Of a stretch of 64,000 bases of DNA, positions 37,987 to 61,169 are shown one piece after another. Below the pieces are notes generated by a model. The model ran no database searches and had not been told where the DNA came from. It saw only the letters and a list, made by a program, of their open reading frames with translations. The position numbers and the translations under genes are program-made. Source of the DNA: Trypanosoma brucei (taxonomy: Eukaryota); assembly GCA_000002445.1 (NCBI GenBank), contig CM000208.1, positions 2,432,001 to 2,496,000 of the forward strand, in the 5' to 3' direction. How positions within the stretch are numbered: the stretch's first letter is position 1; each line of letters opens with the position of its first letter.

Positions 37987-39396
37987 ATGGCCATCACGGT
38001 GCAGCTGGTTCTCGCTTCCACGGGGCATAGCCTTCCAATGACGGTGTATCAGGAAGAGACAACACCCCACACCACCTGTCAACTATCCTCGATCCCTGTG
38101 TTGCGCTCCCAGAAGGTATTCGTATCGGATCTGGTGCTTCTTATACGCAATTGCAGGTCCGCATCGATGGCAGATTGTCACCCCTCATCGGAAGGGTGGA
38201 AGTACATAGAATGCTTTGACTACACGTCGCTGCGGCCGTTGCGACCCAACGAAGCAATAGCGGACAAACAAAAACTTCTGGTCTTCACTCCGCTTTTATT
38301 GAGCGAAGCCCTACTGGAACAATACTCCTCGACTAAGGAACACTCTCATCGTACAAAGTCCAAGGTGGACATGGAAGAGGAGCGCTGGCTCAACCTCAAA
38401 CAGGCGATTGCAGCGCTTGCTGTGCCGCTGAAACTCCATCGAGAACAAATGGAACGGCAGATGGATTTATGCGTGAAGAAAGTTAACGAGACGGCCCCGC
38501 GCTTCCATGCGGCGAAAGAGGGCATAAGCCATGCCTTAGAAAAAATAAAAGACATAAAGGTTTTTAATGACCCCGATTTTTCATTGATAGCCCTTGTAGA
38601 TGCCAGTGAAATTGAGACCGCCGTTGAACAGGGAGAAGTGAAGCTTCAACGAGCGTTAAGGTACCTTAAAGAAGCGCAGACGATGGCACCGAGTGTTTTG
38701 GACGCCATTAGCAAGGAAGTTGAACTTGGAAACAGTATTCAGACAACGTCGGCTTGGCACAGTTACAAAACAACTGAGCAAGCCGATGGCTGCTCAGCCG
38801 TATCTGCGTTGATGCTGGAGGTAAAGCGAAGGGTCGACGCGGTGCGTATGATTTTGACTGATATAACGAAGATCGGGCGAAAACAGTCGGCATGTTCTCG
38901 ATACTGCGATGCTGTGCACTGCCACGTTGTGCAGAAAGAGAATAATTTGCATCAACTGCCGAAAGGGTTGGAGGTTGCACAGAGATTGATGGAGCGCCGG
39001 ATAGTTATGCGGCGCGCCATCCACCGGTTATTGGCGCCACTAGAAGATGAACATCGTTCGCTACAGCAGCATCTCCGCCAGTTCGCTGGAGATTGGGGCG
39101 ACTGCCTTCCCAAGGACCTGTTCGGGGCGGTAGCGGCGCCGCTTCCACCACTGTATCCGGTCGACGACGACGTCGCACAAAAAATGGACCGACACTTCTT
39201 TGATTTGGAAAAGGACGCGACGGAGGAATTTCTCCTCTCCGTCGGTGCCGCATCCGTTGGGCCCTCAGAGCCCTGCGCAGCACTGGAACGCAGACTGCGG
39301 GAAGTGGAAGGAGAGCTGCGGCTATGCAGAGCGGCGCTGAAGGCCACGTCCCGGGAAAAGAACAAGCTCCATACAGGAGGTGAACGGCCGAAGTAG
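37987..39396 (+). CDS. hypothetical protein with a C-terminal coiled coil; last gene of the plus-strand array
   Basis: ATG-initiated 469-aa ORF. The true start may be an internal Met. No domain recognised. Confidence 0.45.
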   Translation: MAITVQLVLASTGHSLPMTVYQEETTPHTTCQLSSIPVLRSQKVFVSDLVLLIRNCRSASMADCHPSSEGWKYIECFDYTSLRPLRPNEAIADKQKLLVFTPLLLSEALLEQYSSTKEHSHRTKSKVDMEEERWLNLKQAIAALAVPLKLHREQMERQMDLCVKKVNETAPRFHAAKEGISHALEKIKDIKVFNDPDFSLIALVDASEIETAVEQGEVKLQRALRYLKEAQTMAPSVLDAISKEVELGNSIQTTSAWHSYKTTEQADGCSAVSALMLEVKRRVDAVRMILTDITKIGRKQSACSRYCDAVHCHVVQKENNLHQLPKGLEVAQRLMERRIVMRRAIHRLLAPLEDEHRSLQQHLRQFAGDWGDCLPKDLFGAVAAPLPPLYPVDDDVAQKMDRHFFDLEKDATEEFLLSVGAASVGPSEPCAALERRLREVEGELRLCRAALKATSREKNKLHTGGERPK

Positions 39397-40486
39397 AAAG
39401 GAACCCCCCTCCCTAACAAATGAAAAAATGCAAACAGAATAGCATTACTCCACCGCAACCGTCAAAGCTTTCCCCGAGGGGCGGTGCTAGCCATATTGCT
39501 TCACATAAATACAAATGCATATATATACATATTTATTTATATTTTTCCCCCTAGTTGTTTGCGTCCCGTTTTGTTGCGGGACATGCCCATCCTTCGGTTA
39601 GAATCAGTTGGTTGCTGTGCAAACCGGGGGCGACAGGGAAGACACGGGGAACGCAGTAATAAAAGGCGCAGTCGCACAATTTGCATGGATGGGTGCTCGT
39701 ATTTCCGCTGTGGTGAGAGGGCTTGGGTAGAGTGAATTTGCCTTTAAAACGTTTTCGCTTTTCTCTCAAGTGGGCACTATTTCCATGTATATGTCAGTGC
39801 TAAATTCCTGTTCACGGTTGGAAATTAACAGGGATTGCCGCATTAGCAACGGAGATGTCGAAAGAGAGATGCAGATCATGTTTTCCCTGTCCCTCCTCGG
39901 AGTGTTGCTTCCCACATACTTTGAGTGTATCATGAGAATGTCACACTATCGTCAGTTTTCTGCATTCAAAGGGTTTAAGGCCGTACAAAAAAAAAAAATC
40001 CACCCGTAGCCGGCGTAAGATTAACTACGTGCAGCTGCGTCTCGATGTAACGTGGAAAAATGGATCGTGGTAGTTTGCGCAACTCTCTTTCCTCAAAAGA
40101 CAGAAGCGGTCGGAAACGCCCAACGAAAACCTCTCATCACAGAGTTTCGTGGAACATCTGAACAGCTGCTGCAAATTCATTTGAGTTGCTGTCTATCTCC
40201 GCCTCTCTGATTCTCATTTACCTGAATATTAGATGTGCAGAACGCACATAAGGCAACGGCACTAAGTAAGCAAGTATAGAATCTCGGAGTTATAAAGACC
40301 GACTGCCGTTGCAACAACGAGCTCCTTCAGCACGCGAATATTTGCGAGAGATGCGGGGCCGAGACTTATCAAATCAAATAAGGGGTAAGCGATCGGCATG
40401 GACAGTAGGCGAATTCCGTACAAAAGCCGTGGCAAAGCACCTTGATGGGCTACGGAAAGTACATGCTGAAGGGGGAAGAAACGAAT

Positions 40487-40488
<2 letters not shown>

Positions 40489-40522
<34 letters not shown>
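40489..40522. repeat. (TA)n microsatellite, about 17 units
   Basis: 'atatatatatatatatatatatatatatatata' read directly. Confidence 0.9.
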
Positions 40523-40523
<1 letters not shown>

Positions 40524-41026
40524 GTGAACGGTTGAGCCCCGCCGGGGGCGTATCGCTAGCGACTCGGCAGTGGTGACACCACCACCTCAACGTGGGCTCA
40601 TGCATTCCGCTACCTCGCATTTTTCGGGGGGGGGGAATCCGGGGGCCGGGAGAGGTTCCACACTCTTATGGGGAACACTGTTTTGAATTCTCCGTCTACG
40701 GCACAACCGCTAACTACGTCCTGTCAGGTCAGCGTTTTCTTCACAGCATTCCCCCCCCCCCGCCCTCCCGTCCTGGAACGAAGACTATCTCGTCGAAATC
40801 CTTATGGCTTTCCTTCCCACGCCATCTTCTTTCGCATTAAGTGCCTCACAGTTGTTCAGCTACCTCAATTTCTTAACCGCATCGAATCTCCTTCCGAGAG
40901 TGCCATTTCCCACTTCTTGACTTACACCTCACCAGACACTGCTATTAACTGAAAAAAAAAAAGTCAAACCCGGTCATTACACACTGTACCAAAAAAAAAA
41001 ATATGAAACGGCTCCCCACCTGAGCG

Positions 41027-41058
41027 AGAACCCTCATCATTGAATAAAAGCATCATTG
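41027..41058. repeat. perfect 16-bp tandem duplication 'catcattgaataaaag' x2, immediately 3' of the last PAG gene
   Basis: Read directly at 41027-41042 and 41043-41058. Confidence 0.85.
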
Positions 41059-41085
41059 AATAAAAGCAAGTGTTGCAAGACCACT

Positions 41086-42207
41086 TTACACCATCGCAGC
41101 GACAAGCGAAATTACCAACCGAACCCTCCAATCACCATGCGAATGCACCGCCGAGTCCCCAAAAAAATTCTTTTGTCGCTTGTGTGTGAAATTCCCACAC
41201 CTTCTGATCATGTAGTCAAGAAGCCGTTTCCCGCTACCGCTCGTGTCCTTGCTTGTCGTCATATTCTTTTCCTGCAAGCTTTCCAGTGCATCCTCAACCA
41301 CTGCCAGCACCTCCTTGTTGATCTTCTGAAACTCTCCAAAAAGTTTCGCGGTCGATGTCAGGGTCGGCACTGTCTTGGTCGGGTGTTCCTCCCATACGAC
41401 ATCTGAACTGTAAGAACTTCCGCGAACTGTACCCTTTGCTCCAGAGCTGGCTTCCCCGCCCTTCTTAATGCCGAGCATCCCGTCACCCCAGGTAATGTGT
41501 TTTGTTGGCTCGATTTTGTAACCTTTATTACGGGAATCCATGTGCACAAGATAGCCCCCACCATTTCCTCCCTTCGTCAGGTGGCAGTTCGCACCACTGC
41601 TTTCCAGTGGATCGGTGTTGTTAAGCTGCAGTGCTTCATCCAACATGGTTGCAAATTCCTTTCCATCACCATCAAAACCGCCGTCTTCACTAGCCCCAGT
41701 GCCGTCGAAACTTGCCGTCCCAAAGCACCCCGTGAAGTTTTGGCGATCTTTGACACAATAGCTATTGTTATCGTTTCCCCCAATAGGCCCCACGAAAACA
41801 CTTAACATTTCATCCAGTCTCCCCGCAGCTAGTGACGCGGCTGCCACAAGTTTTGTCCCGACGTCCCACAGTTTCTTCACGAGTTTCCTTATCATCGCTT
41901 TCTTCCCTTCAAGGGTATATGTTATAAACACCTTCGCCTTGGTACACTCGAAGCCACTCGAATTACTTCTCAATACCTTCAGTTTCGCATAATTCCCCAT
42001 GTGACTCACCTTTTCCATCATCTTTTCGACCGCCTCCGTCTTAGTCAAAACATATCTGTACACGCCACTCTTCAGCATACGAGATGCACTGCAGATACCT
42101 CGCGCCGCCTCACCGGACAGCGGTCTGTTTGTTTCAGCGCTCCCGAACGAATGCAGCATAAACACCAACGCCACTAGCCCTTTTATTGTCTTCCCCATGG
42201 TTGTCAT
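41086..42207 (-). CDS. PAG4: procyclin-associated gene, ESAG6/7 (transferrin-receptor)-related. Fourth and last PAG of the unit, corresponding to PAG4 by locus order.
   Basis: ATG start, N-terminal signal peptide ('MGKTIKGLVALVFMLHSFGSA'). Carries the ESAG6/7-family block 'KLVAAASLAAGRLDEMLSVFVGP' (ESAG6 'AAAGIAAGRLEEWIFVFAQA') and 'ITWGDGMLGIKKGG'. Position is downstream of EP1/EP2. Confidence 0.65.
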   Translation of the reverse strand: MTTMGKTIKGLVALVFMLHSFGSAETNRPLSGEAARGICSASRMLKSGVYRYVLTKTEAVEKMMEKVSHMGNYAKLKVLRSNSSGFECTKAKVFITYTLEGKKAMIRKLVKKLWDVGTKLVAAASLAAGRLDEMLSVFVGPIGGNDNNSYCVKDRQNFTGCFGTASFDGTGASEDGGFDGDGKEFATMLDEALQLNNTDPLESSGANCHLTKGGNGGGYLVHMDSRNKGYKIEPTKHITWGDGMLGIKKGGEASSGAKGTVRGSSYSSDVVWEEHPTKTVPTLTSTAKLFGEFQKINKEVLAVVEDALESLQEKNMTTSKDTSGSGKRLLDYMIRRCGNFTHKRQKNFFGDSAVHSHGDWRVRLVISLVAAMV

Positions 42208-42323
42208 ATCGCTAAAACTAACGCGAAAGGGAAAAAAATGTGATTTATCAACCCCTCTGTTATACTAATTTTCTAGATCTTTCGTGCTAACGTTTGAATA
42301 ATGGAGTAAATCACCGAAAACAT

Positions 42324-43532
42324 TTAGTCGTCCTTTCCCCAATTTCCGCCAAATATCTTCCTCCACGCCTTTCTGAACATTCTTCGGAAGAAGCTCCTCC
42401 TCCCCAACCCTCCACACAACCCAATCTCCGTCATCAGAAGGTCTTTGTCGGCATCCTTTACCTGACCTGCCGAGAGCCAATCCTGTTTAGTACGGCTATT
42501 CAGCGCGGAAACGTTTTCAATTGGAAGACTTCCTAGTCCATTCAGTATTTTCATGGCATCCGCCCTCCTCCCAATAGTTTTTTCTGTCCACTCCTCCGTG
42601 AGACTCCTATATATGTCGCCGTACTCACTTACCTGCTCTTCAAACGCCCGGTAAGCATCCATTGCTGCCCTCAGTGTGGGGACGTTTGTTGTTGGATTTT
42701 CCTCCCACATCATATCGTAACTATATGTCTCATTCCTCGTATCTCCTATGTATGCGGTTTCGCCAACTCCATCTTTCTTTACTCCAAAGATTCCATCGCC
42801 CCAAAGCAAGTTAGTCGTGAGGCTCGCGTTTCCCAGGTATCCTCCCCCCGAACTTCCGCGCACCAGCTGACACCCCTGTGACTCCCCTCCCGTGTATCTT
42901 GGGTCGTTATTGCTCAGCTTTAGGTGCCTTCTAATTGCTTCCTCCAGGTTTGCTCTGCCCTCCGCTTGTGAACCCTTTTTCTCTTCAACATCCTCTACAG
43001 AGAGGAATTCTGCAGCATCTACAGCCGTTTTCCCCCCTTGAAAACAGTCGTGAAGCTCCGCCTTAGTTGCTGCTTCACCTCGTGCACCCGCAGCGCAAGA
43101 AAAAAATTCAACCCCGTTTCTGTTATTCGGTTGCTGGAAAACACTAACGAACTCATCCAACCTCCCCGCTGCCAGCCCCGCCGCTGCTGCTAGTGATAAC
43201 CCTTTCTTCCGGACACTCGCGATCATACCGACCATCCTATCCAAACCACCCACCATGTACTTGAGAAAAAATGCCATTTTGTCGCATTCGGGTCCCGTCT
43301 CCTTCTCTTTTACAACCTTCAACTTCGCCAGCTTTACCATTTTTTCCACATCTTCCAACATCGCTTCTGAAACGTCTGTTTTCTTGACAACATACTGGTA
43401 CATTTCCTTCAACGCCTTACTCACCCCACATACGCCCTGCATTGCCTCCAACCTCAGCGCCCCTCTTTCACCAGGGCCGCCGGCACTTGCCACAGCTACG
43501 ACCGCCGCTATTGTGAATACGACCCTTATCAT
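42324..43532 (-). CDS. PAG2: procyclin-associated gene, ESAG6/7-related; third PAG, PAG2 by locus order
   Basis: The listed ORF runs to 43664 but starts on GTG. The ATG at 43532 follows a polypyrimidine tract plus AG and gives the signal peptide 'MIRVVFTIAAVVAVASA'. Shares 'SLAAAAGLAAGRLDEFVSVF' and 'LLWGDGIFGVKKDG' with the other PAGs. Confidence 0.65.
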   Translation of the reverse strand: MIRVVFTIAAVVAVASAGGPGERGALRLEAMQGVCGVSKALKEMYQYVVKKTDVSEAMLEDVEKMVKLAKLKVVKEKETGPECDKMAFFLKYMVGGLDRMVGMIASVRKKGLSLAAAAGLAAGRLDEFVSVFQQPNNRNGVEFFSCAAGARGEAATKAELHDCFQGGKTAVDAAEFLSVEDVEEKKGSQAEGRANLEEAIRRHLKLSNNDPRYTGGESQGCQLVRGSSGGGYLGNASLTTNLLWGDGIFGVKKDGVGETAYIGDTRNETYSYDMMWEENPTTNVPTLRAAMDAYRAFEEQVSEYGDIYRSLTEEWTEKTIGRRADAMKILNGLGSLPIENVSALNSRTKQDWLSAGQVKDADKDLLMTEIGLCGGLGRRSFFRRMFRKAWRKIFGGNWGKDD

Positions 43533-43653
43533 TTTCCCAGAGCCACCTAAAGAAGAAAAAGATAGAGCACATACCTGCATCCTGATGCCCAATACACTTC
43601 CACCCACCCATCCCCCTCCCCCAAAAAAATACACACATATATTAGTAAAGTGC

Positions 43654-44766
43654 TTATACCCCACAATCCTTCAACTCTTCCCCCAGAAGCCTGTCCTCCA
43701 CACGTTCCCCATCCACTTGCGCCACCCAGTCCTCCATGCTCTTTTCTTCTTCGTCATCTTCCCCCTCCGTGTTTTTATCAACAGCAGAATTTGCTTTCCT
43801 CCCAAGTGTCCCGAGATCCTCCACATACAGATTCTCCTGAACGAAACGATCTACTAAATGTTTATGCGACGCGTCGACTTTTCTTTCCAGTTCTGCAAAT
43901 AGTTTATAGTCTTTCACCACCTTTACTAGGGTGGGATTCCCTCCCGTTGGATTTTCCTCCCACACCACTGCGGTGTCATACGTTGTCGCCCGGGTGTTTC
44001 CCTTAAACCCCGTCATCTGGGATCCCGACTTGACGACACCGAGCACTCCGTCACCCCATATGATATTCTCAGAGAGATCGCCATTTCCCATATAGCCACC
44101 GCCCGCCTTCCCAACTGTAAGCTGGCATCCCAAATCCTTGCCAAAGTCGTGCCTTGGGTCACCTCCATCCACAAGCAAGCTATCGTGAAGCACGCTTTCC
44201 AAATTCATTTCGAACGGATTTTCAAAAAGGTTTTCGCCTTCTGTAATTTTGAGAGACTCCCACTCACCGCTGTCTTTGTTCTTGGCGTAGCAGCTGGGTA
44301 GCACTTCTTCAGGGAAATTCACACTTAGACCACCGATGCAAGAGTTATTCGCGTCTCTATGGGCCTGAACGAAAACGGACACCATTTCATCCAATCTTCC
44401 TGCGGCAATGCCCGCTTCTCCCACTAATCTCCTTCCAACGTCCCACAACTCGTCCACTTCCCTGACCATGTTCTGCTCATTGATTCTTACCTGTGTAAGG
44501 AATACTCTTAGTGTTCCACACTTCAGTCCTTTGTTCCATTCTGTCAATAATTTCAGTCGTACGACTTTCTGGAGCAGTTGGACTTCCTCGAGTTTTCTGT
44601 CAGCCTCCATGAGTTTCTGCTCGACGAAACCGTGCACAGCCTTTAGTTTTTTTGAGGTATTACATAACGCTTTTATTGCGGACAATTTCAAAGCTGCCCC
44701 AGCGTCCGCATGATGACAACAACCACTTACTAACGCCACTACTAAAAATGCCACTGTTCTTCGCAT
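43654..44766 (-). CDS. PAG5: procyclin-associated gene, ESAG6/7-related; second PAG, PAG5 by locus order
   Basis: Listed start 44829 is GTG. The ATG at 44766 gives the signal peptide 'MRRTVAFLVVALVSGCC'. Shares 'GEAGIAAGRLDEMVSVFVQA' and 'IIWGDGVLGVVKSG'. Confidence 0.65.
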   Translation of the reverse strand: MRRTVAFLVVALVSGCCHHADAGAALKLSAIKALCNTSKKLKAVHGFVEQKLMEADRKLEEVQLLQKVVRLKLLTEWNKGLKCGTLRVFLTQVRINEQNMVREVDELWDVGRRLVGEAGIAAGRLDEMVSVFVQAHRDANNSCIGGLSVNFPEEVLPSCYAKNKDSGEWESLKITEGENLFENPFEMNLESVLHDSLLVDGGDPRHDFGKDLGCQLTVGKAGGGYMGNGDLSENIIWGDGVLGVVKSGSQMTGFKGNTRATTYDTAVVWEENPTGGNPTLVKVVKDYKLFAELERKVDASHKHLVDRFVQENLYVEDLGTLGRKANSAVDKNTEGEDDEEEKSMEDWVAQVDGERVEDRLLGEELKDCGV

Positions 44767-44847
44767 TTGCTGAAGAAAACAAAAGATGTCTGGCACCTGC
44801 AACCCACTAAGTTTTCCCTTAAACCACACAAACTAAAAAATACGATT

Positions 44848-46065
44848 TTAAAACAACAAAAATAACAACGCGAGGGTCCTCCTGAGAGAGCCAATCCTGC
44901 CAACACCACACATCGCCATCTCCTCCAACAGCTTCTCCTCTTGCACCGTTTCTCTGTTCCCGAGCACGACGAAGGACTTCCCACTATCCTCATCTACCAC
45001 TACTGTGCTTTTATTTCCGTGGGTGCCCGTGTTCACAATAGCTTGCGCGTATTCCCAGTTCCAGTGTGCGCCGGTTTCGTGCGCCAGCTCTTCGATGTGA
45101 GTATACAAGTTCACAAATTTGCGAAGCTCTCGGTAGGCGTTTCTAAGAACGGGGACGTTGTTAACGGGGTCTTCCTCCCAAGTTACATCGTGTATTAGAA
45201 CCTCTGCACGGGTTTTTCCTGTCCCCCCAACGAATCCTCTTCCACTTCGTTTAAGGGAAATAATTCCATCTCCCCAGAGTATTCTTCTGGAGGTGCTGTT
45301 TTCGGAGAGGTAGCCGCCCCCCGGACGGGTGTTTGTTAGGTGGCAGTTTGCGCTGTGGACGTAGCGTTCCAAGGGGTTTCCACCGCCACCAGTGAGCCTA
45401 AGCAGTTCGTTCATACTCTCCCGTGTCATGTTCATTTCCTCCACCCTTTCCATGCGGTGCATATCCCCCAAAGAAATAAATTCATCCTTCTCCGAGTCAC
45501 TTAAATAGCAATTCAACAACTGATTCCGCGTCGCGTGGTGCTCGCTATTTCCTACGCAAAAATCCCCTTTCCCACTGGAATACGCGCGCCGCCACACATT
45601 TATCATTTCATCCAACCTCCCCGCCGCTATCCCTGCTGCCCCTACCGCTGAGTATCCAAGATATCTCAACCTCTTCAATTCTCTCCTCTTCACCCTATTC
45701 ACTTTACTCCCCACACGTTTCAAAAACTTCGCGATCCCCGTGCACGAGGTCCAATTGCTATTTCCCCCTTCATTTCCCCTAACCCTCACAATCTTCAACC
45801 TCACCAACTCCACCATATCCTCAAACTCCCTCACCTTCTCGGTTGCATACTTAGTTTTCGCTTGGACGAAGGCATACACCGATTTCAGCCTCTTCGACGC
45901 ATTACAGAGCGCTTCCGCAGCTCCACTCAAACTCAGTGCGCCACTGTCCGCGGAGGCGCTACCAGTAAGTACAAAAAAGGACACAATCACTAATACCTTC
46001 ATGAGCGTGCGAACCCTATTCGCGATGGCAAAGGTCAAGCGAAAAAGGATAATCAAAGAGACCAT
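44848..46065 (-). CDS. PAG1: procyclin-associated gene, ESAG6/7-related; first PAG downstream of EP2, PAG1 by locus order
   Basis: Listed start 46101 is TTG. In-frame ATGs at 46065 and 46002; the latter gives the signal peptide 'MKVLVIVSFFVLTGSASA'. Shares 'AVGAAGIAAGRLDEMINVW' and 'ILWGDGIISLKRSG'. Confidence 0.65.
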   Translation of the reverse strand: MVSLIILFRLTFAIANRVRTLMKVLVIVSFFVLTGSASADSGALSLSGAAEALCNASKRLKSVYAFVQAKTKYATEKVREFEDMVELVRLKIVRVRGNEGGNSNWTSCTGIAKFLKRVGSKVNRVKRRELKRLRYLGYSAVGAAGIAAGRLDEMINVWRRAYSSGKGDFCVGNSEHHATRNQLLNCYLSDSEKDEFISLGDMHRMERVEEMNMTRESMNELLRLTGGGGNPLERYVHSANCHLTNTRPGGGYLSENSTSRRILWGDGIISLKRSGRGFVGGTGKTRAEVLIHDVTWEEDPVNNVPVLRNAYRELRKFVNLYTHIEELAHETGAHWNWEYAQAIVNTGTHGNKSTVVVDEDSGKSFVVLGNRETVQEEKLLEEMAMCGVGRIGSLRRTLALLFLLF

Positions 46066-47758
46066 TTTCGATGATTGATGAAACAGGAAAGACCGCGGCA
46101 AGTTGTGACGCCCCCACTTGGGGACTGGAAAATCCGCCGGGGATGCGCCTGCCAGATTCAGGCTTCAGCAACGGCAACGGCGTTAGTGTTGGCGGGGAAG
46201 GGAAGGTGCAAGGCGCCTTTTTGCAGCTGGAATTTAAAGCTTAACCGACAGCATGAAATCATCCGTGACACTGTCTTATTTCCCTCCAAAACCATTGGAT
46301 ACGCCGTGGTTGGCACACGGCCCATTGCCATCAATTGCTGAGGTGGGCTCGTGTTGCCGGCGGTGGGATCCAATGCACTATGGCGCATCAGAGAAGGAAG
46401 AGCGACCCCCCTGATACTTAGGGGGGTCAAAACAGGGTTTCCAGGCTACAAACCGTTCTTAACGCTATCCGCGACAACACGTTGGTGGGTAGGAAAGTGT
46501 CGGGTAGGGGCTTAAAAGTGAGATTGACCGATGGCAACTATTCTCGAGATGGCATAAAACCCTAACCGCACCCCGCCGACGCTTAGAAATTAGGTCCAGG
46601 AAAGAAAGTCAAGCCCGACCAAGGACCTCCTTTTCTTCGGTTTTGGCTTTGTCGAAAGGACACGAAATCGATCCACCGCGGGGCGCGCAGTGGACTTGTT
46701 ACTTATTTAACTGACTCCTAAACGAGAAAGCTCCCCTGCGGCGCGCGACGCACATCATCTCAAAGGCGATGTGGGAGAGAAAACACTGCGAGAACATATG
46801 ACCACCGACGAGCCGGTGAATGCCCCAGAAGTATTTCAAAAAATGTCACACTCTCCATTGATTGTCCCAGCATATTTCACAAAGTGGACCAAAACAGAGG
46901 GCAGTGCAGTAAATACGTAAAGTTCATGGAAACAACGCGCTTACCCTCTCCGCAGCCTCTCCTCCCCAACAGATCAAGTGGCAGCAGCTCACTCAACTGA
47001 ATCGCTCCCCTGACGAGAACAGTTAAATAAAGGCAAGGCAAAAGGCAAAACACCGCTCAGGCCTCAATTTTGAACAGTTACGGTGAACTTCCTGAAGGTG
47101 CTTTAAAGTTTCCCCGACATATTAACAAACATGATGATGCACCACCGTAGGCGAAGAAGGAATCATCACCAGGAATGTGCTTCCTTCAACCGCTGCTTCC
47201 CATGTTGCAACTCCACGGTGTCAAACGGAAGCTGAGATGGCGGAAATATCGAGGGACAAATCGCTTGAGTCATCAAAAGTCCATTTGTCTCCCATTTCTA
47301 GCCTGAGGTTTTAGAAGGAACTATTTTCCCAGTACGAAAAAAGGACAAGGCAAAAAGTTCGAAAAAAAAAAAGTTCAGTCACAAATGGAGGAGGTTGCTG
47401 TCAACCATTGCAGGAACAAGACATAGGAGAAGACCGCAAATGCAGTGGATGAATTTTTGACAAAACCATACGAATGGTTTACAGAAGAAACCGTTTGGTA
47501 GAAGCCAAGGAACACATTGACAGGCACACGCAGAAGTCTACAGGGCTGCGTGCTACCGCCGACGGTTCCGAGGCATAAAAAAAAAAATAGAACTCAAAAA
47601 AATAGGTTGAAAAAAAATATTACGTATATGCAAGTGTCCTGTCGCCAAGGGACGTCATAAAGCGGGCGCATCGCGCCAAAGGAAAGGTCAAAGAAATAAC
47701 TGGGGCCACCCTTGTTAAAAAGTTTTGACCCCCCAGAGAATTTTCTGTTTACATGAGC

Positions 47759-48148
47759 TTAGAATGCGGCAACGAGACCAACGGCCGCGATTGCAAACGG
47801 AAGAGCAACAGACTTCAGCGTTGCAGCACCAGGTTCAGGTTCAGGTTCAGGTTCCGGCTCGGGTTCCGGCTCGGGTTCAGGTTCGGGTTCAGGTTCGGGT
47901 TCAGGTTCGGGTTCAGGTTCAGGTTCAGGTTCGGGTTCGGGTTCGGGTTCGGGTTCAGGTTCAGGTTCGGGTTCAGGTTCAGGCTCAACTTCGTCCTGGA
48001 CCTTGGTTCCCTTCTCGCCTTTGCCTTTGCCTCCCTTAGTAAGACCCTTGTCTTCTGGTCCTTCAGCGGCTGCGGCAAATCCCACGCCAGCGAAGAGGTT
48101 CGCGCTGAACAGAAGAATAGCGAGCAGATAAAGGGAACGAGGTGCCAT
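47759..48148 (-). CDS. EP2: EP procyclin (PARP), isoform without an N-glycosylation sequon; EP2-type
   Basis: '[54 protein letters not shown](EP)~26[23 protein letters not shown]'. Has the signal peptide, the (Glu-Pro)n rod and a hydrophobic GPI-addition tail. No GPEET motif. Confidence 0.9.
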
Positions 48149-48779
48149 TGTGAATTTTACTTCTTGGTGTAATTGAAGTCTTCAAGTTGAAAAAATGGGG
48201 AAATGGCATATATGAATGCGCAGATCAACTGGGATAACCAGCATTGCATTGCCCTCTCATCTCTGAGGTGCCTTTCATCCCTAGGGGACAATTAACCGAA
48301 ACTCGGATAAATAAATCACTCTCCCGACAAGAATAGCTCAAGAGGGGGAGAGGCAATAGAAAAGGCACAGCACTCAGCCCTTAACTGCCTGTAGTAACCG
48401 CTGCGAGCTTCCTTCCATATTCATACAAAGTCTTCAAAAGCACACACCCGTCAACCTCCAACATCGTTTCTCCAGCAGCAACGCAGCAGTGGGGGGCAGG
48501 GCAGCGAAACAACTTCAGCTGCGGGGCCCATCTGAAGCAGGGAAACACTGCACATAAAACCACCAATGAAATAAAGCAAAATGCAGACCCCTTCGCCCAA
48601 GTTGGCCGGTCTAACACTTGTTTCCCATTTCTGGCCTGAAGGTTTAGAAGGAACTATTATTCGAACCCAAAAGAAGAGAAGGCAAAAAAATTAATGAAAT
48701 AGCTCATCCAACAAATTAAAAGGCAGAGCGCCACATTCACACGCAGCACGCACAATAACACAAGGCACCAATAATAATT

Positions 48780-49077
48780 TTAAGATCCAAATTCAAAGGA
48801 ATGAAAAAAAATAGAAGTGAAACGCTTAAAATTATGGAATACGCAACCGAAACATCACAGAAATCTACAGGGCTGTGGGTCTCAGGCGATGGTTAATAAG
48901 ACATTAGAAAGGATGTCACCAAAAATATATAACGAAAAAATATTAAATGAATGTCCACACTGTTTTACAAGAAACAGCAGGAAACAAACACGATGCACCA
49001 TATGGAGGCGATATAAATGAAAGGAACCTTTTCAAAGGGTTTCGTTCCTCCGAGGCGCTTTACACGCTTGCATCCGC
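48780..49077 (-). promoter_or_regulatory. EP1 3'UTR. Expected site of the conserved procyclin 3'UTR control elements (the U-rich 26-mer and the 16-mer stem-loop), location approximate.
   Basis: Immediately 3' of the EP1 stop. The sense strand is U-rich and contains 'cauucauuuaauauuuuuucguuauauauuuuuggugacaucc' (about 48903-48945). A related 'uuggcgacaggacac' lies in the EP2 3'UTR. I cannot recall the exact element sequences, so the position is a candidate only. Confidence 0.35.
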
Positions 49078-49503
49078 TTAGAATGCGGCAACGAGAGCAG
49101 CAGCCGCGACTGCAAACGGAAGTGCAACAGATTTCAGCGTTGCAGCACCAGGTTCAGGTTCAGGTTCGGGTTCAGGTTCCGGCTCGGGTTCCGGCTCGGG
49201 TTCAGGTTCAGGTTCCGGCTCGGGTTCAGGTTCGGGTTCAGGTTCAGGTTCAGGTTCAGGTTCAGGTTCAGGTTCAGGTTCGGGTTCGGGTTCGGGTTCG
49301 GGTTCAGGTTCAGGTTCAGGGTCGGGGTCAGTGCCATTGGTATCGTCGGCGCCGACCTTGGTTCCCTTCTCGCCTTTGCCTTTGCCTCCCTTAGTAAGAC
49401 CCTTGTCTTCTGGTCCTTCAGCGGCTGCGGCAAATCCCACGCCAGCGAAGAGGTTCGCGCTGAACAGAAGAATAGCGAGCAGATAAAGGGAACGAGGTGC
49501 CAT
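49078..49503 (-). CDS. EP1: EP procyclin (PARP), isoform with an N-glycosylation sequon; EP1-type and first gene of the unit
   Basis: Same N- and C-termini as EP2, but '[14 protein letters not shown]' (NGT sequon) precedes about 28 EP dipeptides. The 47 nt upstream of the ATG are identical to those upstream of EP2. Confidence 0.9.
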
Positions 49504-49559
49504 TGTGAATTTTACTTCTTGGTGTAATTGAAGTCTTCAAGTTGAAAAAAATGGGGAAA

Positions 49560-49900
49560 AGGAAAAAAAACTCGAAGGCGCGTGCAGCGATCACGAGAAC
49601 ATGTTAAACTCAGTACTCACCCGATAACCCCTATTTTCAATGCACGCCCACCCAGAGACACGGAACAGCACAAAACAACCATATCACTTCCACAAAATGG
49701 ACATTTTACACAAAATGCACTATTGACTAGTACTCAACTATACTAATAAGAGATACCTATCGGACACGATATACTGTGAAAAGGATATTAAGCTCACTAT
49801 GCATCTGAAAACGCTTTCACCTCACAACCTACTGACACACACCTTTCCGCTTAACCCCAATGACAACAAAGGCTGACTGCACCTCACATCTGAGGAAGAG
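49560..49900 (-). promoter_or_regulatory. procyclin (EP/PAG) RNA polymerase I promoter region, approximate
   Basis: By established knowledge the procyclin promoter lies within about 250 bp upstream of the transcription start, which is about 100-150 nt upstream of the EP1 trans-splice site. Here the polyY tract plus AG sits at about 49545-49600 on the minus strand. The interval upstream is ORF-free and AT-rich, and EP2 has no duplicated equivalent beyond 47 nt. Confidence 0.45.
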
Positions 49901-50925
49901 GTCCAGGGGAGCGGTGCCTGTTCGCGGTGCGGAATTGTTGTTTCCCCCTCTTCCTCATCCGCCCCCTCGGTTCCGTGGGCCCTGACTCCCGAAGAGTTTT
50001 CGAGAATTGTTAATAGAGAAGGGATTCGCTCACCATATTCGGAACAATACACTTGTCAGAAGTTTGGCAATCCAGTTTGGGGGCACTGAAAAGCACTTTG
50101 TGGTGAATCAGCGGCATTTAGGCCGGCAGCGGTATGTTTTGCTACGAAACACCGGGCATCGAAGAAGTCAGAAAGCCCTTCAGCACGACGGCTGATGGAG
50201 AACGCTGGTAAAGTTTTCCTTTCATGCGCCCTCAACGAGAACTAGCGGAAATTAAAACCAATTTCGGCGGATAAAGGCCCCGCAACTCGGCACATCGGCG
50301 GCGTTGGTGGGCCGACTCACCGATAAAACGAGCCGACACCTGCCACCACACACACTGGTATATGAAGGGGGCACCTCCGGTGGGCACGCAACTCCCAATG
50401 AGCTTTTGCCGTGGTGGGAACCGTGGCGCGCCTGATTGGTTGAAATTTCGTCGGCACAATGACCTGCCAGGATGCGTTGGGCTTGGTTAAGGATGTTGGC
50501 GCTTTGGGGAAACGAAGACCCACGCTCAGCGGAGCCTGAACATGGGACCACATCTGCGTGGTTTATTGGGCTGCCAAGGCCTCCGAAAGGCGAGCCCGAT
50601 CCTGGAAACGGGTGGAGCAAGTTCCTAAGAGGGTTGCTCTCCCGCGTTTCACGGCCCACTGCCTACGCGCGCAGGGTAAGTAAATTGGCTTAGACATAGC
50701 CCCCGAAAGGGGAAAAAGAAGGTCAAGGATGGCAACCGGGTTCTGTCCGTGACATTGCGAGGGACAATTGGTTGCCATGACCGGAAGGCGCCCGCCACCC
50801 ATGGGTTTCTACCCACCCCCAAATGAGGCGAGGGTTTTGCAGGCTAGGAATATCTATGATTGAATCAAATATTGCCATGCCTCCCCCCGATGTGGGACAC
50901 GCAAATGCGTTACGCTCCCCTCCCC

Positions 50926-51206: not shown

Positions 51207-51370
51207 CGCACACGCAACTCCACTGCCTCCTGTAGCAAGGCCGCGTAAGTTTGGGGGCCTCCAAGGGCAAGTCAAAACCCGTCGAGGCGGAGCCTCGGTT
51301 AGATAACGGTAACGGAACACGCTACAGCGGGTCCGGCGTCGCTACAGGAGGCAGTGGAGTTGCGTGTGCG
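51207..51370. repeat. perfect 30-bp inverted repeat with a 104-nt spacer (potential hairpin)
   Basis: 51207-51236 'cgcacacgcaactccactgcctcctgtagc' is the exact reverse complement of 51341-51370 'gctacaggaggcagtggagttgcgtgtgcg'. It is also visible as the shared 'RTRNSTASCS' in the opposite-strand ORFs 50823..51248(+) and 51299..51565(-). Confidence 0.85.
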
Positions 51371-54065: not shown

Positions 54066-57000
54066 CTACACCTTGCGACCCGAGTGATTAACGAAGGTTG
54101 CGCGGTTAGTCGTAACATACATCGAAGGGTCCACATGACGGACCTGTACTGCAGGTTTCCCAATGGGACGAGGAGGACATTGTACCTCAGGCCTGATAAA
54201 CCTGTTGCGGTATTCGCTGCTTACACCTTGCATAGAAATGCTTGACTGTTTAACAGTCGGAGCAGCCTTTGGCATATAAGGTTTGCTGGCACCGTGTGCC
54301 TTGAAATCTCTATGCGCGGTACTCACGTACATATCAGCATCTACATGACAAGGGCAGGAATAACCAACATTAGGGGCCTTTTTCCACTTTGACACACGTA
54401 CTCCGTTACCAGTTGGTTGATCGCCCACAGCCGCAGCAGCACACTCAGTAGTAGCTGCAACAGCCGCAGCAGCACCTCCATTACTCTCCCCACTTGCGAC
54501 ACACTTCATATCAGTGGAGACATCAACCTTCTTTGATGTCACACCACCATCACTTTTACCTTTCACGACCTTCTTAACAACAATAGCATCAGCTACAGAT
54601 GAAGCAGTAAAGCTATGCCTCTTAGATATAACAGATTCATCACCAAAGGAAGACTCCCTACACGAACTCTTATAACAAGAAGAATCATAGCGACAATACG
54701 AATCCTTTGCAGTTGTCCTAAAGTGGCCATCATCACCACCGCGACTTGACACTTTCACAACTTCCTCACGGAGCACATCACGCTTATATGCGGCAGGGTC
54801 AATTGGTGCATACGATTCTGCAGTGGTTGAGCGGAAGTGACTGGGATCAACATGACGAGGGCCCGTTGCCTCCTCTTCCTCACGGAGCACATCACGCTTA
54901 TATGCGGCAGGGTCAATTGGCGCATACGATTCTGCAGTGGTTGAGCGGAAGTGACTGGGATCAACATGACGAGGGCCCGTTGCCTCCTCTTCCTCACGGA
55001 GCACATCACGCTTATATGCGGCAGGGTCAATTGGCGCATACGATTCTGCAGTGGTTGAGCGGAAGTGACTGGGATCAACATGACGAGGGCCCGTTACCTC
55101 CTCTTCCTCACGGAGCACATCACGCTTATATGCGGCAGGGTCAATTGGCGCATACGATTCTGCAGTGGTTGAGCGGAAGTGACTGGGATCAACATGACGA
55201 GGGCCCGTTACCTCCTCTTCCTCACGGAGCACATCACGCTTATATGCGGCAGGGTCAATTGGTGCATACGATTCTGCAGTGGTTGAGCGGAAGTGACTGG
55301 GATCAACATGACGAGGGCCCGTTACCTCCTCTTCCTCACGGAGCACATCACGCTTATATGCGGCAGGGTCAATTGGTGCATGCGATTCTGCAGTGGTTGA
55401 GCGGAAGTGACTGGGGTCAACATGACGAGGGCCCGTTACCTCCTCTTCCTCACGGAGCACATCACGCTTATATGCGGCAGGGTCAATTGGCGCATACGAT
55501 TCTGCAGTGGTTGAGCGGAAGTGACTGGGGTCAACATGACGAGGGCCCGTTACCTCCTCTTCCTCACGGAGCACATCACGCTTATATGCGGCAGGGTCAA
55601 TTGGCGCATACGATTCTGCAGTGGTTGAGCGGAAGTGACTGGGGTCAACATGACGAGGGCCCGTTACCTCCTCTTCCTCACGGAGCACATCACGCTTATA
55701 TGCGGCAGGGTCAATTGGTGCATACGATTCTGCAGTGGTTGAGCGGAAGTGACTGGGGTCAACATGACGAGGGCCCGTTACCTCCTCTTCCTCACGGAGC
55801 ACATCACGCTTATATGCGGCAGGGTCAATTGGCGCATACGATTCTGCAGTGGTTGAGCGGAAGTGACTGGGGTCAACATGACGAGGGCCCGTTACCTCCT
55901 CTTCCTCACGGAGCACATCACGCTTATATGCGGCAGGGTCAATTGGCGCATACGATTCTGCAGTGGTTGAGCGGAAGTGACTGGGGTCAACATGACGAGG
56001 GCCCGTTACCTCCTCTTCCTCACGGAGCACATCACGCTTATATGCGGCAGGGTCAATTGGCGCATACGATTCTGCAGTGGTTGAGCGGAAGTGACTGGGA
56101 TCAACATGACGAGGGCCCGTTGCCTCCTCTTCCTCACGGAGCACATCACGCTTATATGCGGCAGGGTCAATTGGCGCATACGATTCTGCAGTGGTTGAGC
56201 GGAAGTGACTGGGATCAACATGACGAGGGCCCGTTACCTCCTCTTCCTCACGGAGCACATCACGCTTATATGCGGCAGGGTCAATTGGCGCATACGATTC
56301 TGCAGTGGTTGAGCGGAAGTGACTGGGGTCAACATGACGAGGGCCCGTTACCTCCTCTTCCTCACGGAGCACATCACGCTTATATGCGGCAGGGTCAATT
56401 GGCGCATACGATTCTGCAGTGGTTGAGCGGAAGTGACTGGGATCAACATGACGAGGGCCCGTTACCTCCTCTTCCTCACGGAGCACATCACGCTTATATG
56501 CGGCAGGGTCAATTGGCGCATACGATTCTGCAGTGGTTGAGCGGAAGTGACTGGGATCAACATGACGAGGGCCCGTTACCTCCTCTTCCTCACGGAGCAC
56601 ATCACGCTTATATGCGGCAGGGTCAATTGGCGCATACGATTCTGCAGTGGTTGAGCGGAAGTGACTGGGATCAACATGACGAGGGCCCGTTACCTCCTCT
56701 TCCTCACGGAGCACATCACGCTTATATGCGGCAGGGTCAATTGGTGCATACGATTCTGCAGTGGTTGAGCGGAAGTGACTGGGGTCAACATGACGAGGGC
56801 CCGTTACCTCCTCTTCCTCACGGAGCACATCACGCTTATATGCGGCAGGGTCAATTGGTGCATACGATTCTGCAGTGGTTGAGCGGAAGTGACTGGGGTC
56901 AACATGACGAGGGCCCGTTACCTCCTCTTCCTCACGGAGCACATCACGCTTATATGCGGCAGGGTCAATTGGCGCATACGATTCTGCAGTGGTTGAGCGG

Positions 57001-60000
57001 AAGTGACTGGGGTCAACATGACGAGGGCCCGTTACCTCCTCTTCCTCACGGAGCACATCACGCTTATATGCGGCAGGGTCAATTGGCGCATACGATTCTG
57101 CAGTGGTTGAGCGGAAGTGACTGGGGTCAACATGACGAGGGCCCGTTACCTCCTCTTCCTCACGGAGCACATCACGCTTATATGCGGCAGGGTCAATTGG
57201 TGCATACGATTCTGCAGTGGTTGAGCGGAAGTGACTGGGGTCAACATGACGAGGGCCCGTTACCTCCTCTTCCTCACGGAGCACATCACGCTTATATGCG
57301 GCAGGGTCAATTGGCGCATACGATTCTGCAGTGGTTGAGCGGAAGTGACTGGGATCAACATGACGAGGGCCCGTTACCTCCTCTTCCTCACGGAGCACAT
57401 CACGCTTATATGCGGCAGGGTCAATTGGCGCATACGATTCTGCAGTGGTTGAGCGGAAGTGACTGGGATCAACATGACGAGGGCCCGTTGCCTCCTCTTC
57501 CTCACGGAGCACATCACGCTTATATGCGGCAGGGTCAATTGGCGCATACGATTCTGCAGTGGTTGAGCGGAAGTGACTGGGATCAACATGACGAGGGCCC
57601 GTTACCTCCTCTTCCTCACGGAGCACATCACGCTTATATGCGGCAGGGTCAATTGGCGCATACGATTCTGCAGTGGTTGAGCGGAAGTGACTGGGGTCAA
57701 CATGACGAGGGCCCGTTACCTCCTCTTCCTCACGGAGCACATCACGCTTATATGCGGCAGGGTCAATTGGTGCATACGATTCTGCAGTGGTTGAGCGGAA
57801 GTGACTGGGATCAACATGACGAGGGCCCGTTACCTCCTCTTCCTCACGGAGCACATCACGCTTATATGCGGCAGGGTCAATTGGTGCATACGATTCTGCA
57901 GTGGTTGAGCGGAAGTGACTGGGATCAACATGACGAGGGCCCGTTACCTCCTCTTCCTCACGGAGCACATCACGCTTATATGCGGCAGGGTCAATTGGTG
58001 CATACGATTCTGCAGTGGTTGAGCGGAAGTGACTGGGGTCAACATGACGAGGGCCCGTTACCTCCTCTTCCTCACGGAGCACATCACGCTTATATGCGGC
58101 AGGGTCAATTGGCGCATACGATTCTGCAGTGGTTGAGCGGAAGTGACTGGGATCAACATGACGAGGGCCCGTTACCTCCTCTTCCTCACGGAGCACATCA
58201 CGCTTATATGCGGCAGGGTCAATTGGTGCATACGATTCTGCAGTGGTTGAGCGGAAGTGACTGGGGTCAACATGACGAGGGCCCGTTACCTCCTCTTCCT
58301 CACGGAGCACATCACGCTTATATGCGGCAGGGTCAATTGGCGCATACGATTCTGCAGTGGTTGAGCGGAAGTGACTGGGGTCAACATGACGAGGGCCCGT
58401 TACCTCCTCTTCCTCACGGAGCACATCACGCTTATATGCGGCAGGGTCAATTGGCGCATACGATTCTGCAGTGGTTGAGCGGAAGTGACTGGGATCAACA
58501 TGACGAGGGCCCGTTACCTCCTCTTCCTCACGGAGCACATCACGCTTATATGCGGCAGGGTCAATTGGCGCATACGATTCTGCAGTGGTTGAGCGGAAGT
58601 GACTGGGATCAACATGACGAGGGCCCGTTACCTCCTCTTCCTCACGGAGCACATCACGCTTATATGCGGCAGGGTCAATTGGCGCATACGATTCTGCAGT
58701 GGTTGAGCGGAAGTGACTGGGGTCAACATGACGAGGGCCCGTTACCTCCTCTTCCTCACGGAGCACATCACGCTTATATGCGGCAGGGTCAATTGGCGCA
58801 TACGATTCTGCAGTGGTTGAGCGGAAGTGACTGGGGTCAACATGACGAGGGCCCGTTACCTCCTCTTCCTCACGGAGCACATCACGCTTATATGCGGCAG
58901 GGTCAATTGGCGCATACGATTCTGCAGTGGTTGAGCGGAAGTGACTGGGGTCAACATGACGAGGGCCCGTTACCTCCTCTTCCTCACGGAGCACATCACG
59001 CTTATATGCGGCAGGGTCAATTGGCGCATACGATTCTGCAGTGGTTGAGCGGAAGTGACTGGGATCAACATGACGAGGGCCCGTTACCTCCTCTTCCTCA
59101 CGGAGCACATCACGCTTATATGCGGCAGGGTCAATTGGCGCATACGATTCTGCAGTGGTTGAGCGGAAGTGACTGGGGTCAACATGACGAGGGCCCGTTA
59201 CCTCCTCTTCCTCACGGAGCACATCACGCTTATATGCGGCAGGGTCAATTGGCGCATACGATTCTGCAGTGGTTGAGCGGAAGTGACTGGGATCAACATG
59301 ACGAGGGCCCGTTACCTCCTCTTCCTCACGGAGCACATCACGCTTATATGCGGCAGGGTCAATTGGTGCATACGATTCTGCAGTGGTTGAGCGGAAGTGA
59401 CTGGGGTCAACATGACGAGGGCCCGTTGCCTCCTCTTCCTCACGGAGCACATCACGCTTATATGCGGCAGGGTCAATTGGCGCATACGATTCTGCAGTGG
59501 TTGAGCGGAAGTGACTGGGATCAACATGACGAGGGCCCGTTGCCTCCTCTTCCTCACGGAGCACATCACGCTTATATGCGGCAGGGTCAATTGGTGCATA
59601 CGATTCTGCAGTGGTTGAGCGGAAGTGACTGGGATCAACATGACGAGGGCCCGTTACCTCCTCTTCCTCACGGAGCACATCACGCTTATATGCGGCAGGG
59701 TCAATTGGTGCATACGATTCTGCAGTGGTTGAGCGGAAGTGACTGGGGTCAACATGACGAGGGCCCGTTACCTCCTCTTCCTCACGGAGCACATCACGCT
59801 TATATGCGGCAGGGTCAATTGGTGCATACGATTCTGCAGTGGTTGAGCGGAAGTGACTGGGGTCAACATGACGAGGGCCCGTTACCTCCTCTTCCTTACG
59901 GAGCACATCACGCTTATATGCGGCAGGGTCAATTGGTGCATACGATTCTGCAGTGGTTGAGCGGAAGTGACTGGGGTCAACATGACGAGGGCCCGTTACC

Positions 60001-60839: not shown

Positions 60840-61169
60840 CCTTCCTTTGGTATTTTTGATTCCTATTTATTGTAAGTAGTTTTTACACTTATATTTCTGA
60901 AGGTAAGATGCTTCTTTTTCTTAGGTGATTTATGGATATTGAGTAGAGAAATTATATCCTGCAGAGGGGTGTGTGGTAAATTATCTTACAGCGAATATTC
61001 TAATTTTTTTTCATCATTTGGGGTTGAGTTAGCGGATATTAAGGTATACTTTTGGTGTTCAGTCATCACAGTTCCTTGTGGAAGGTGTTACTCATGCAAA
61101 TACACGTGACGTTAGGCGTTTGAGAAACTGCCTCCTTTTCTACATCTACTGACTGGCAACCGCTGGTCG

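Follow-up and report, generated by a model that had tools for sequence, protein, structure and literature searches.

The minus strand of a 64,000-nt stretch of Trypanosoma brucei DNA (the window) carries a procyclin expression site at about 41,086 to 49,900. We identify this region, with very little room for doubt, as the procyclin expression site of chromosome 10 in its long EP/PAG1 haplotype, from T. b. brucei TREU927 or a near-identical strain, equivalent to Tb927.10.10260 to Tb927.10.10210. The gene order on the minus strand is EP1-EP2-PAG1-PAG5-PAG2*-PAG4, as obtained from the list of open reading frames (ORFs), exact protein look-up and restriction sites. The proteins of PAG1, PAG5, PAG2* and PAG4, together with that of the neighbouring gene GU2, match exactly to consecutive TREU927 entries on one 4,054,025-bp record, and the flanks are those of the long haplotype, with MARP upstream on the same strand and the convergent GU2 downstream. 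The published order of the long chromosome-10 haplotype is EP1/EP2/PAG1/PAG5/PAG2/PAG4 (PMC4288722), and Tb927.10.10240, 10230, 10220 and 10210 have been reported as PAG1, PAG5, PAG2 and PAG4, respectively (PMC3332058). The gene identities and their order, the haplotype, the conserved promoter block, the splice signals and the 3′ untranslated region (UTR) motifs were established here from the sequence, and no evidence was found that contradicts the identification. An earlier note, made from the letters alone, had read the region as a T. brucei chromosome-10 locus of the EP/PAG1 type without GPEET that identifies the organism and locus rather than anything new. This reading stands, as the exact PAG and GU2 matches support both the organism and the locus, and the GPEET repeat occurs zero times in all six frames of the whole window. 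The EP1/EP2/PAG1/PAG5/PAG2*/PAG4 cluster is already known and well studied, with the EP/PAG1 expression site on chromosome 10 reportedly treated by Koenig-Martin in 1992, Liniger in 2001 and Haenni in 2006 and 2009, and nothing about it is new here.

The two procyclin genes stand in tandem at the head of the unit. EP1 (49078..49503, minus strand) encodes 141 aa with an NGT sequon at residues 56-58 and a repeat of DPDP followed by (EP)28, giving 30 DP/EP dipeptides, and EP2 (47759..48148, minus strand) encodes 129 aa with (EP)26 and no N-X-S/T sequon. Both proteins have the same layout: identical N-termini that resemble signal peptides lead into a short domain of charged residues, after which come the long Glu-Pro repeat and a C-terminus that is hydrophobic, of the predicted glycosylphosphatidylinositol (GPI)-signal type, and ends in VAAF. 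At the DNA level the repeats appear as two hexanucleotide (period-6) arrays of 30.5 and 26.3 copies, detected with Tandem Repeats Finder. Full-length matches to Pfam PF05887 (Trypan_PARP) were obtained for EP1 and EP2 with E values of 2.6e-69 and 1.7e-67 (231.8 and 225.9 bits, with a curated cut-off of 100 bits). The sequon status and repeat numbers fit the published isoform definitions, in which a single N-glycosylation site precedes the repeats in EP1 and EP3 and is lacking in EP2, and EP1 has ~30 repeats (PMC4339879). In addition, the N-terminal domains of both proteins differ from that of EP3 on chromosome 6. The target of EP-G3, an oligonucleotide specific to the 3′UTR of EP2 (PMC2731899), is matched exactly at 47623-47646 (minus strand), behind the second gene only, and the site was not found in either of the chromosome-6 EP3 3′UTRs. 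Primers published for the EP1 flanks (PMC7094864) lie on either side of the first EP gene, at 49738-49765, 48769-48798 and 48510-48527. Naming EP1 by homology search was unusable, as Glu-Pro-rich unrelated proteins dominated the results and only GPEET procyclins and "procyclin A-alpha" were returned.

The signals around the procyclin genes follow the same pattern. The splice-acceptor AG of EP1 lies at 49536-49535 and the homologous AG of EP2 at 48181-48180, both on the minus strand. Each 3′UTR holds a conserved motif, CAGCCCTGTAGATTTCTG in EP1 (48858..48875, minus strand) and CAGCCCTGTAGACTTCTG in EP2 (47531..47548, minus strand). The shared sequence CAGCCCTGTAGAYTTCTG has 2 matches in the window against 0 expected and is placed in the loop of a predicted hairpin in both genes, with stem sequences that differ between EP1 and EP2; we take it to be the known conserved procyclin 16-mer element. 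Between the two genes, 75-78 nt at 48615..48692 (minus strand) are 74-80% identical to 47282-47359, which covers the PAG1 splice-acceptor region and first 5′UTR bases, and this segment resembles a leftover from the duplication that gave rise to the two procyclin genes.

Downstream of EP2 are four PAG coding sequences on the minus strand, spaced just 73-116 nt apart. These are PAG1 (44848..46065, 405 aa), an exact match to EAN78417/XP_823245, named PAG1 in TREU927; PAG5 (43654..44766, 370 aa), an exact match to EAN78416; PAG2* (42324..43580 for 418 aa or 42324..43532 for 402 aa), annotated as PAG2 (Tb927.10.10220); and PAG4 (41086..42207, 373 aa), an exact match to EAN78414/XP_823242, named PAG4. 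All four match PF00913, the A-type N-terminal domain of variant surface glycoprotein (VSG), with E values of 2.7e-7 to 4.3e-16, and a PAG profile compared with the transferrin receptor structure 6SOY matched ESAG7 (6SOY_B) at E 6e-35 and ESAG6 (6SOY_A) at E 3e-31. The proteins are only 26-33% identical in pairwise comparison. The AAGRLDE block occurs once in each of the four ORFs, and when the region was compared with itself by BLASTN, the PAG genes showed no similarity to one another at the DNA level outside this 42-nt block. A tblastn search of the window with the four PAGs gave no additional PAG-like remnants.

Since EAN78416 is labelled in GenBank only as "PAG1, putative", a test for PAG5 that does not depend on gene order was sought. 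Haenni et al. used a XhoI-SalI fragment covering nt 175-889 of the PAG5 ORF as their PAG5 probe (PMC2731899). The second PAG ORF has XhoI exactly at nt 175 and SalI exactly at nt 889, and neither site is found in the other three PAG ORFs; the second ORF is confirmed as PAG5. For the third ORF two start codons are on record: EAN78415 is the 418-aa form of TREU927 starting at the ATG at 43580, and T. equiperdum SCU67977 is the 402-aa form starting at 43532. A splice-signal scan found a 14-nt polypyrimidine tract and an AG at 43562-43547, and because these lie between the two ATGs the shorter form would be favoured, being more compatible with trans-splicing at this site. In the naming used by the Roditi laboratory, canonical PAG2 is a fusion of the 5′ part of PAG1 with the 3′ part of PAG2*, found on the other haplotype (PMC2731899). 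Since the third gene has an N-terminal half unlike PAG1, it is PAG2* rather than the fusion.

The description in the earlier note of two tandem EP genes, the first with NGT and the second without, followed by four ESAG6/7-related minus-strand ORFs that share AAGRLDE, is thus upheld by the translated ORFs and the PF05887, PF00913 and 6SOY profile matches. The order PAG1-PAG5-PAG2-PAG4, which it had taken from position alone, now has independent support from the PAG5 restriction sites, and no different order emerged. The name PAG2 that it gave the third ORF is right as an annotation name but does not hold under the Roditi-laboratory scheme.

We considered whether the same locus could come not from TREU927 but from another Trypanozoon strain or subspecies, such as T. 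equiperdum OVI, Lister 427 or AnTat1.1. T. equiperdum OVI has the identical PAG2* (402 aa), PAG4 and GU2 as well, and an OVI contig is 99.68% identical to the window over 13.5 kb; as this contig begins inside PAG5, OVI also carries the long form. However, only TREU927 has the exact PAG1 and PAG5 sequences on record, the OVI contig has 22 mismatches and 4 gaps, and positions in AnTat1.1 are offset by 8 nt, which together make an origin outside TREU927 quite unlikely. Compared with the published chromosome-10 EP/PAG1 site, the region agrees in gene order, MARP, the T region, convergent GU2, the exact PAG and GU2 proteins, the PAG5 restriction sites, the EP2 3′UTR probe site and the long PAG1 5′UTR. 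The only differences are the 8-nt PAG1 mRNA offset against AnTat1.1 and EP repeat counts that are ~1 off the Lister 427 alleles, and both are ordinary strain polymorphism.

The assignment to the long TREU927 haplotype has a few gaps, none of which contradicts it. The strain is identified from five exact proteins, and the transcription start is bounded to 49,536-50,170. In PAG1 mRNA numbering the window has the ATG at nt 1256 and HindIII at nt 1079, while AnTat1.1 has the ATG at 1264 and HindIII at 1087 (PMC2731899). In the window both positions are lower by 8 nt, a shift that strain indels could account for, and since the offset is constant the indel should lie in the first ~1,080 nt of the PAG1 5′UTR. 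Lastly, the exact EP1 and EP2 proteins had no match in the exact-match collection, but this absence is uninformative because the EP genes called in the gambiense assembly are equally unmatched.

Other loci provided the comparisons for the haplotype and the chromosome, namely the T. b. gambiense chromosome-6 GPEET/PAG3 locus (L002), T. b. equiperdum chromosome 6 (L003) and T. b. gambiense chromosome 10 (L004). The short EP/PAG2 haplotype (EP1-EP2-PAG2-PAG4), known from T. b. gambiense DAL972 and T. evansi STIB805, shares with the window its flanks, promoter, pair of procyclin genes, PAG4 and T region, and collinearity between the window and gambiense chromosome 10 extends from 54,784 to 36,000, with 95.6-98.6% identity over the shared parts. 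Gambiense lacks 2,455 bp, which run from the 3′ part of PAG1 through the whole of PAG5 into the 5′ part of PAG2*, and because this segment is present here the window holds the long haplotype. The junction alignment places the deletion inside a 17-nt run, GCGGGGAGGTTGGATGA, that encodes AGRLDE and is identical in the AAGRLDE blocks of PAG1 (45604..45645, minus strand; repeat family D2) and PAG2* (43149..43190, minus strand), which are the upstream and downstream partners of the recombination that forms the short haplotype. The product in gambiense is a fused protein of 428 aa that clusters with AAG59622 "PAG2", and no PAG5. The published crossover is at mRNA nt 1721 (PMC2731899), and this equals ORF nt ~457 or codon 153 and falls on the AAGRLDE block. 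In the window PAG1, PAG5 and PAG2* are separate intact ORFs with no single fused PAG2, so that with the 2,455-bp segment the short haplotype is ruled out and has next to no probability left.

The gambiense locus also differs in its second procyclin gene, which in DAL972 is EP3-like with an NGT sequon, in contrast to the EP2 without a sequon found here. This gene (L004 6512-6895) nearly matches the EP3 on chromosome 6 of its own genome, not the unglycosylated EP2, which suggests that gene conversion took place or that the assembly is at fault. A similar case is the "12 divergent amino acids" described in the EP2 of T. evansi (PMC4288722).

The chromosome-6 GPEET/PAG3 site is a paralogous unit that shares a promoter block, a pair of procyclin genes, 3′UTR elements and the first ~550-640 nt of the PAG 5′UTR, and over the promoter block, procyclin genes, flanks and first ~550 nt of the PAG 5′UTR it is 93-95% identical to the window. 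Homology runs from ~50,170 to the N-terminal coding part of EP1 at ~95% identity, is interrupted by the EP/GPEET repeats, continues from 49,195 to 46,769 at 93% and then ends, which fits the published sharing of PAG 5′UTRs for ~640 nt until the PAG3 ORF begins (PMC2731899). That the region is itself the chromosome-6 locus (GPEET, EP3, PAG3 and GRESAG2.1) is ruled out, with a probability close to nil, by the EP repeats of the first gene here where chromosome 6 has GPEET, by the second gene lacking the NGT of chromosome-6 EP3, by the EP2-specific 3′UTR site, by four full PAG genes beyond the homology end rather than PAG3 (202 aa) and GRESAG2.1, and by flanks of MARP and GU2 instead of HpHbR. Likewise, the locus comparisons gave no best match to chromosome 6 or to a non-brucei species, either of which would have spoken against the earlier note.

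With the region taken as the long EP/PAG1 haplotype, its upstream end can be described from the same comparisons. A block of ~630 bp upstream of EP1 (49536..50170, minus strand) is ~95% identical to the region upstream of GPEET on chromosome 6 of T. b. gambiense and T. b. equiperdum, with homology starting sharply at ~50,170, and by this homology it must hold the procyclin promoter of RNA polymerase I (Pol I), together with the start of transcription and the leader of the pre-mRNA. Judged by conservation, the promoter must lie between the EP1 splice-acceptor AG and the homology limit. Published "EP1 promoter" guide RNAs map to 49631-49669. Transcription starts at ~49,740 and at ~49,620 were considered, but these two positions disagree, and the start is given by the bounding block only.

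The 5′UTR of PAG1 is long. It extends over 46066..47320 (minus strand) after an AG at 47322-47321, and its first ~550 nt are common with the chromosome-6 PAG3 5′UTR. Two attenuators of Pol I have been described in PAG1, a "Mid" fragment of nt 662-1240 that acts in the sense orientation and an ORF fragment of nt 1087-2458 that acts in both orientations (PMC2731899). On the window map these fall at ~46,660-46,090 and ~46,240-44,870, respectively, and the latter half of PAG1's 5′UTR is the published sense-strand "Mid" attenuator. Deletion of PAG1 raised nascent PAG5 transcription tenfold, and PAG mRNAs are 100-500 times rarer than procyclin mRNAs (PMC2731899), as a result of the attenuation in the PAG1 5′UTR and ORF.

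At the downstream end, the T region is the non-coding tail of the procyclin unit within a convergent strand-switch region. It spans 1.7 kb between PAG4 and the stop codon of convergent GU2 (39397..41085, minus strand, approximate limits), with its role taken from PMC2731899, where it was found to be transcribed and to overlap the GU2 mRNA. Pol I transcription was reported to run on for ~2.5 kb past the T region, overlapping the GU2 mRNA (PMC2731899), and TbMex67 restrains Pol I read-through into the opposing RNA polymerase II (Pol II) unit (PMC10250216). GU2 itself (37987..39396, plus strand) is a neighbour outside the procyclin unit and the last gene of the convergent Pol II unit; its protein is an exact match to EAN78413 and belongs to the cluster of AAG59624 "GU2". 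The sign of the GC skew changes at ~40 kb. The T region contains a (TA)17 run at ~40490-40523 and G/C homopolymers of 10-12 nt at 40621-40645 and 40751-40765, all close to the meeting point of the convergent transcription units. The earlier note had called 41086-49900 a complete transcription unit, and while this is correct in substance it is slightly narrow at both ends. Position 41086 is the final base of the PAG4 stop codon and 49900 is inside the conserved block upstream of EP1, and the limits are too narrow because that block reaches ~50,170 and published transcription passes PAG4 into the T region and GU2 antisense.

Upstream of the promoter a 4-kb ORF-free stretch leads to the gene for microtubule-associated repetitive protein (MARP; 54066..60839, minus strand), a neighbour that is the last gene of the upstream Pol II unit and has been drawn directly upstream of EP1 (PMC2731899). 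It was recognized by its repeat array, in which Tandem Repeats Finder counts 51.5 copies of 114 bp (38 aa) with 99% identity at 54761-60633. Opposite MARP, on the plus strand, an ORF of 2,037 aa runs from 54746 to 60859, and this is a repeat artefact and not a second gene, as it stays open because the 114-bp array is near-perfect. The ORF-free gap between MARP and EP1 holds an inverted repeat ~1.5 kb upstream of the promoter block, with 37-nt arms (51207-51243 and 51334-51370) that are 95% complementary and 90 nt apart. Folded as RNA, it has a predicted energy of -108 kcal/mol (z = -9.7), and no Rfam family matched it. In T. b. gambiense (L004 3408-3595) the repeat is conserved at 96%, with pairing preserved across two substitutions in the arms. 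Rfam scans (gathering cut-off and E<=1) and tRNA scans of the window gave nothing relevant.

How the unit is expressed, that is the use of Pol I, the attenuation and the extent of read-through, is drawn from the literature only. The procyclin unit is transcribed by Pol I (PMC2731899), and on this basis the promoter in the ~630-bp block would recruit Pol I to produce a single polycistronic precursor covering EP1, EP2, PAG1, PAG5, PAG2* and PAG4. Spliced-leader trans-splicing, which supplies the cap, and polyadenylation would then release the individual mRNAs. In the published picture EP1, which is N-glycosylated, and EP2, which is not, serve as GPI-anchored coat proteins of the tsetse-midgut form, and it is mainly the 3′UTR elements that set their abundance. 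Sequences of the PAG1 5′UTR and ORF attenuate Pol I elongation, and residual transcription crosses the T region and enters into overlap with the convergent Pol II unit ending with GU2.

A parallel to this arrangement is found in the bloodstream VSG expression sites that carry ESAG6 and ESAG7. These are also Pol I polycistronic units for surface proteins, and the PAGs belong to the same family (PF00913), but the VSG sites lie at telomeres, are far longer and are active in the mammalian stage, with only one expressed at any time. Relative to ESAG6/7 the PAGs are only distant paralogues, with no ligand known and very low mRNA levels. All four PAGs have hydrophobic N-termini; PAG1 (ending in RTLALLFLLF) and PAG4 (ending in LVISLVAAMV) have hydrophobic GPI-signal-like tails, and PAG5 and PAG2* have charged tails, a split that mirrors ESAG6 (anchored) and ESAG7 (not anchored). 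By analogy with the bloodstream transferrin receptor, ESAG6-like PAG1 and PAG4 could form heterodimeric surface receptors of the insect stage with ESAG7-like PAG5 and PAG2*, though we regard this as improbable. If it were true, the short haplotype would lose one receptor partner from either group and gain a hybrid. Knockout of all PAGs has been reported to be without phenotype, and this, together with the rarity of PAG mRNAs, argues against an important role for such receptors.

These results are of use in annotation and in showing that the earlier note was sound, and no new question is opened by them. Our analysis adds an identification of the genes that is independent of order, base-level proof of the recombination junction and haplotype, the PAG2* naming and better boundaries for the unit. 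The locus anchors the window at a convergent strand-switch region of chromosome 10, at which a Pol II unit comes up against the short Pol I unit that encodes insect-stage coat proteins. The procyclin unit is a textbook case of protein-coding genes transcribed by Pol I, and experiments have addressed it as a site where Pol I is attenuated and where polymerases have their boundaries.

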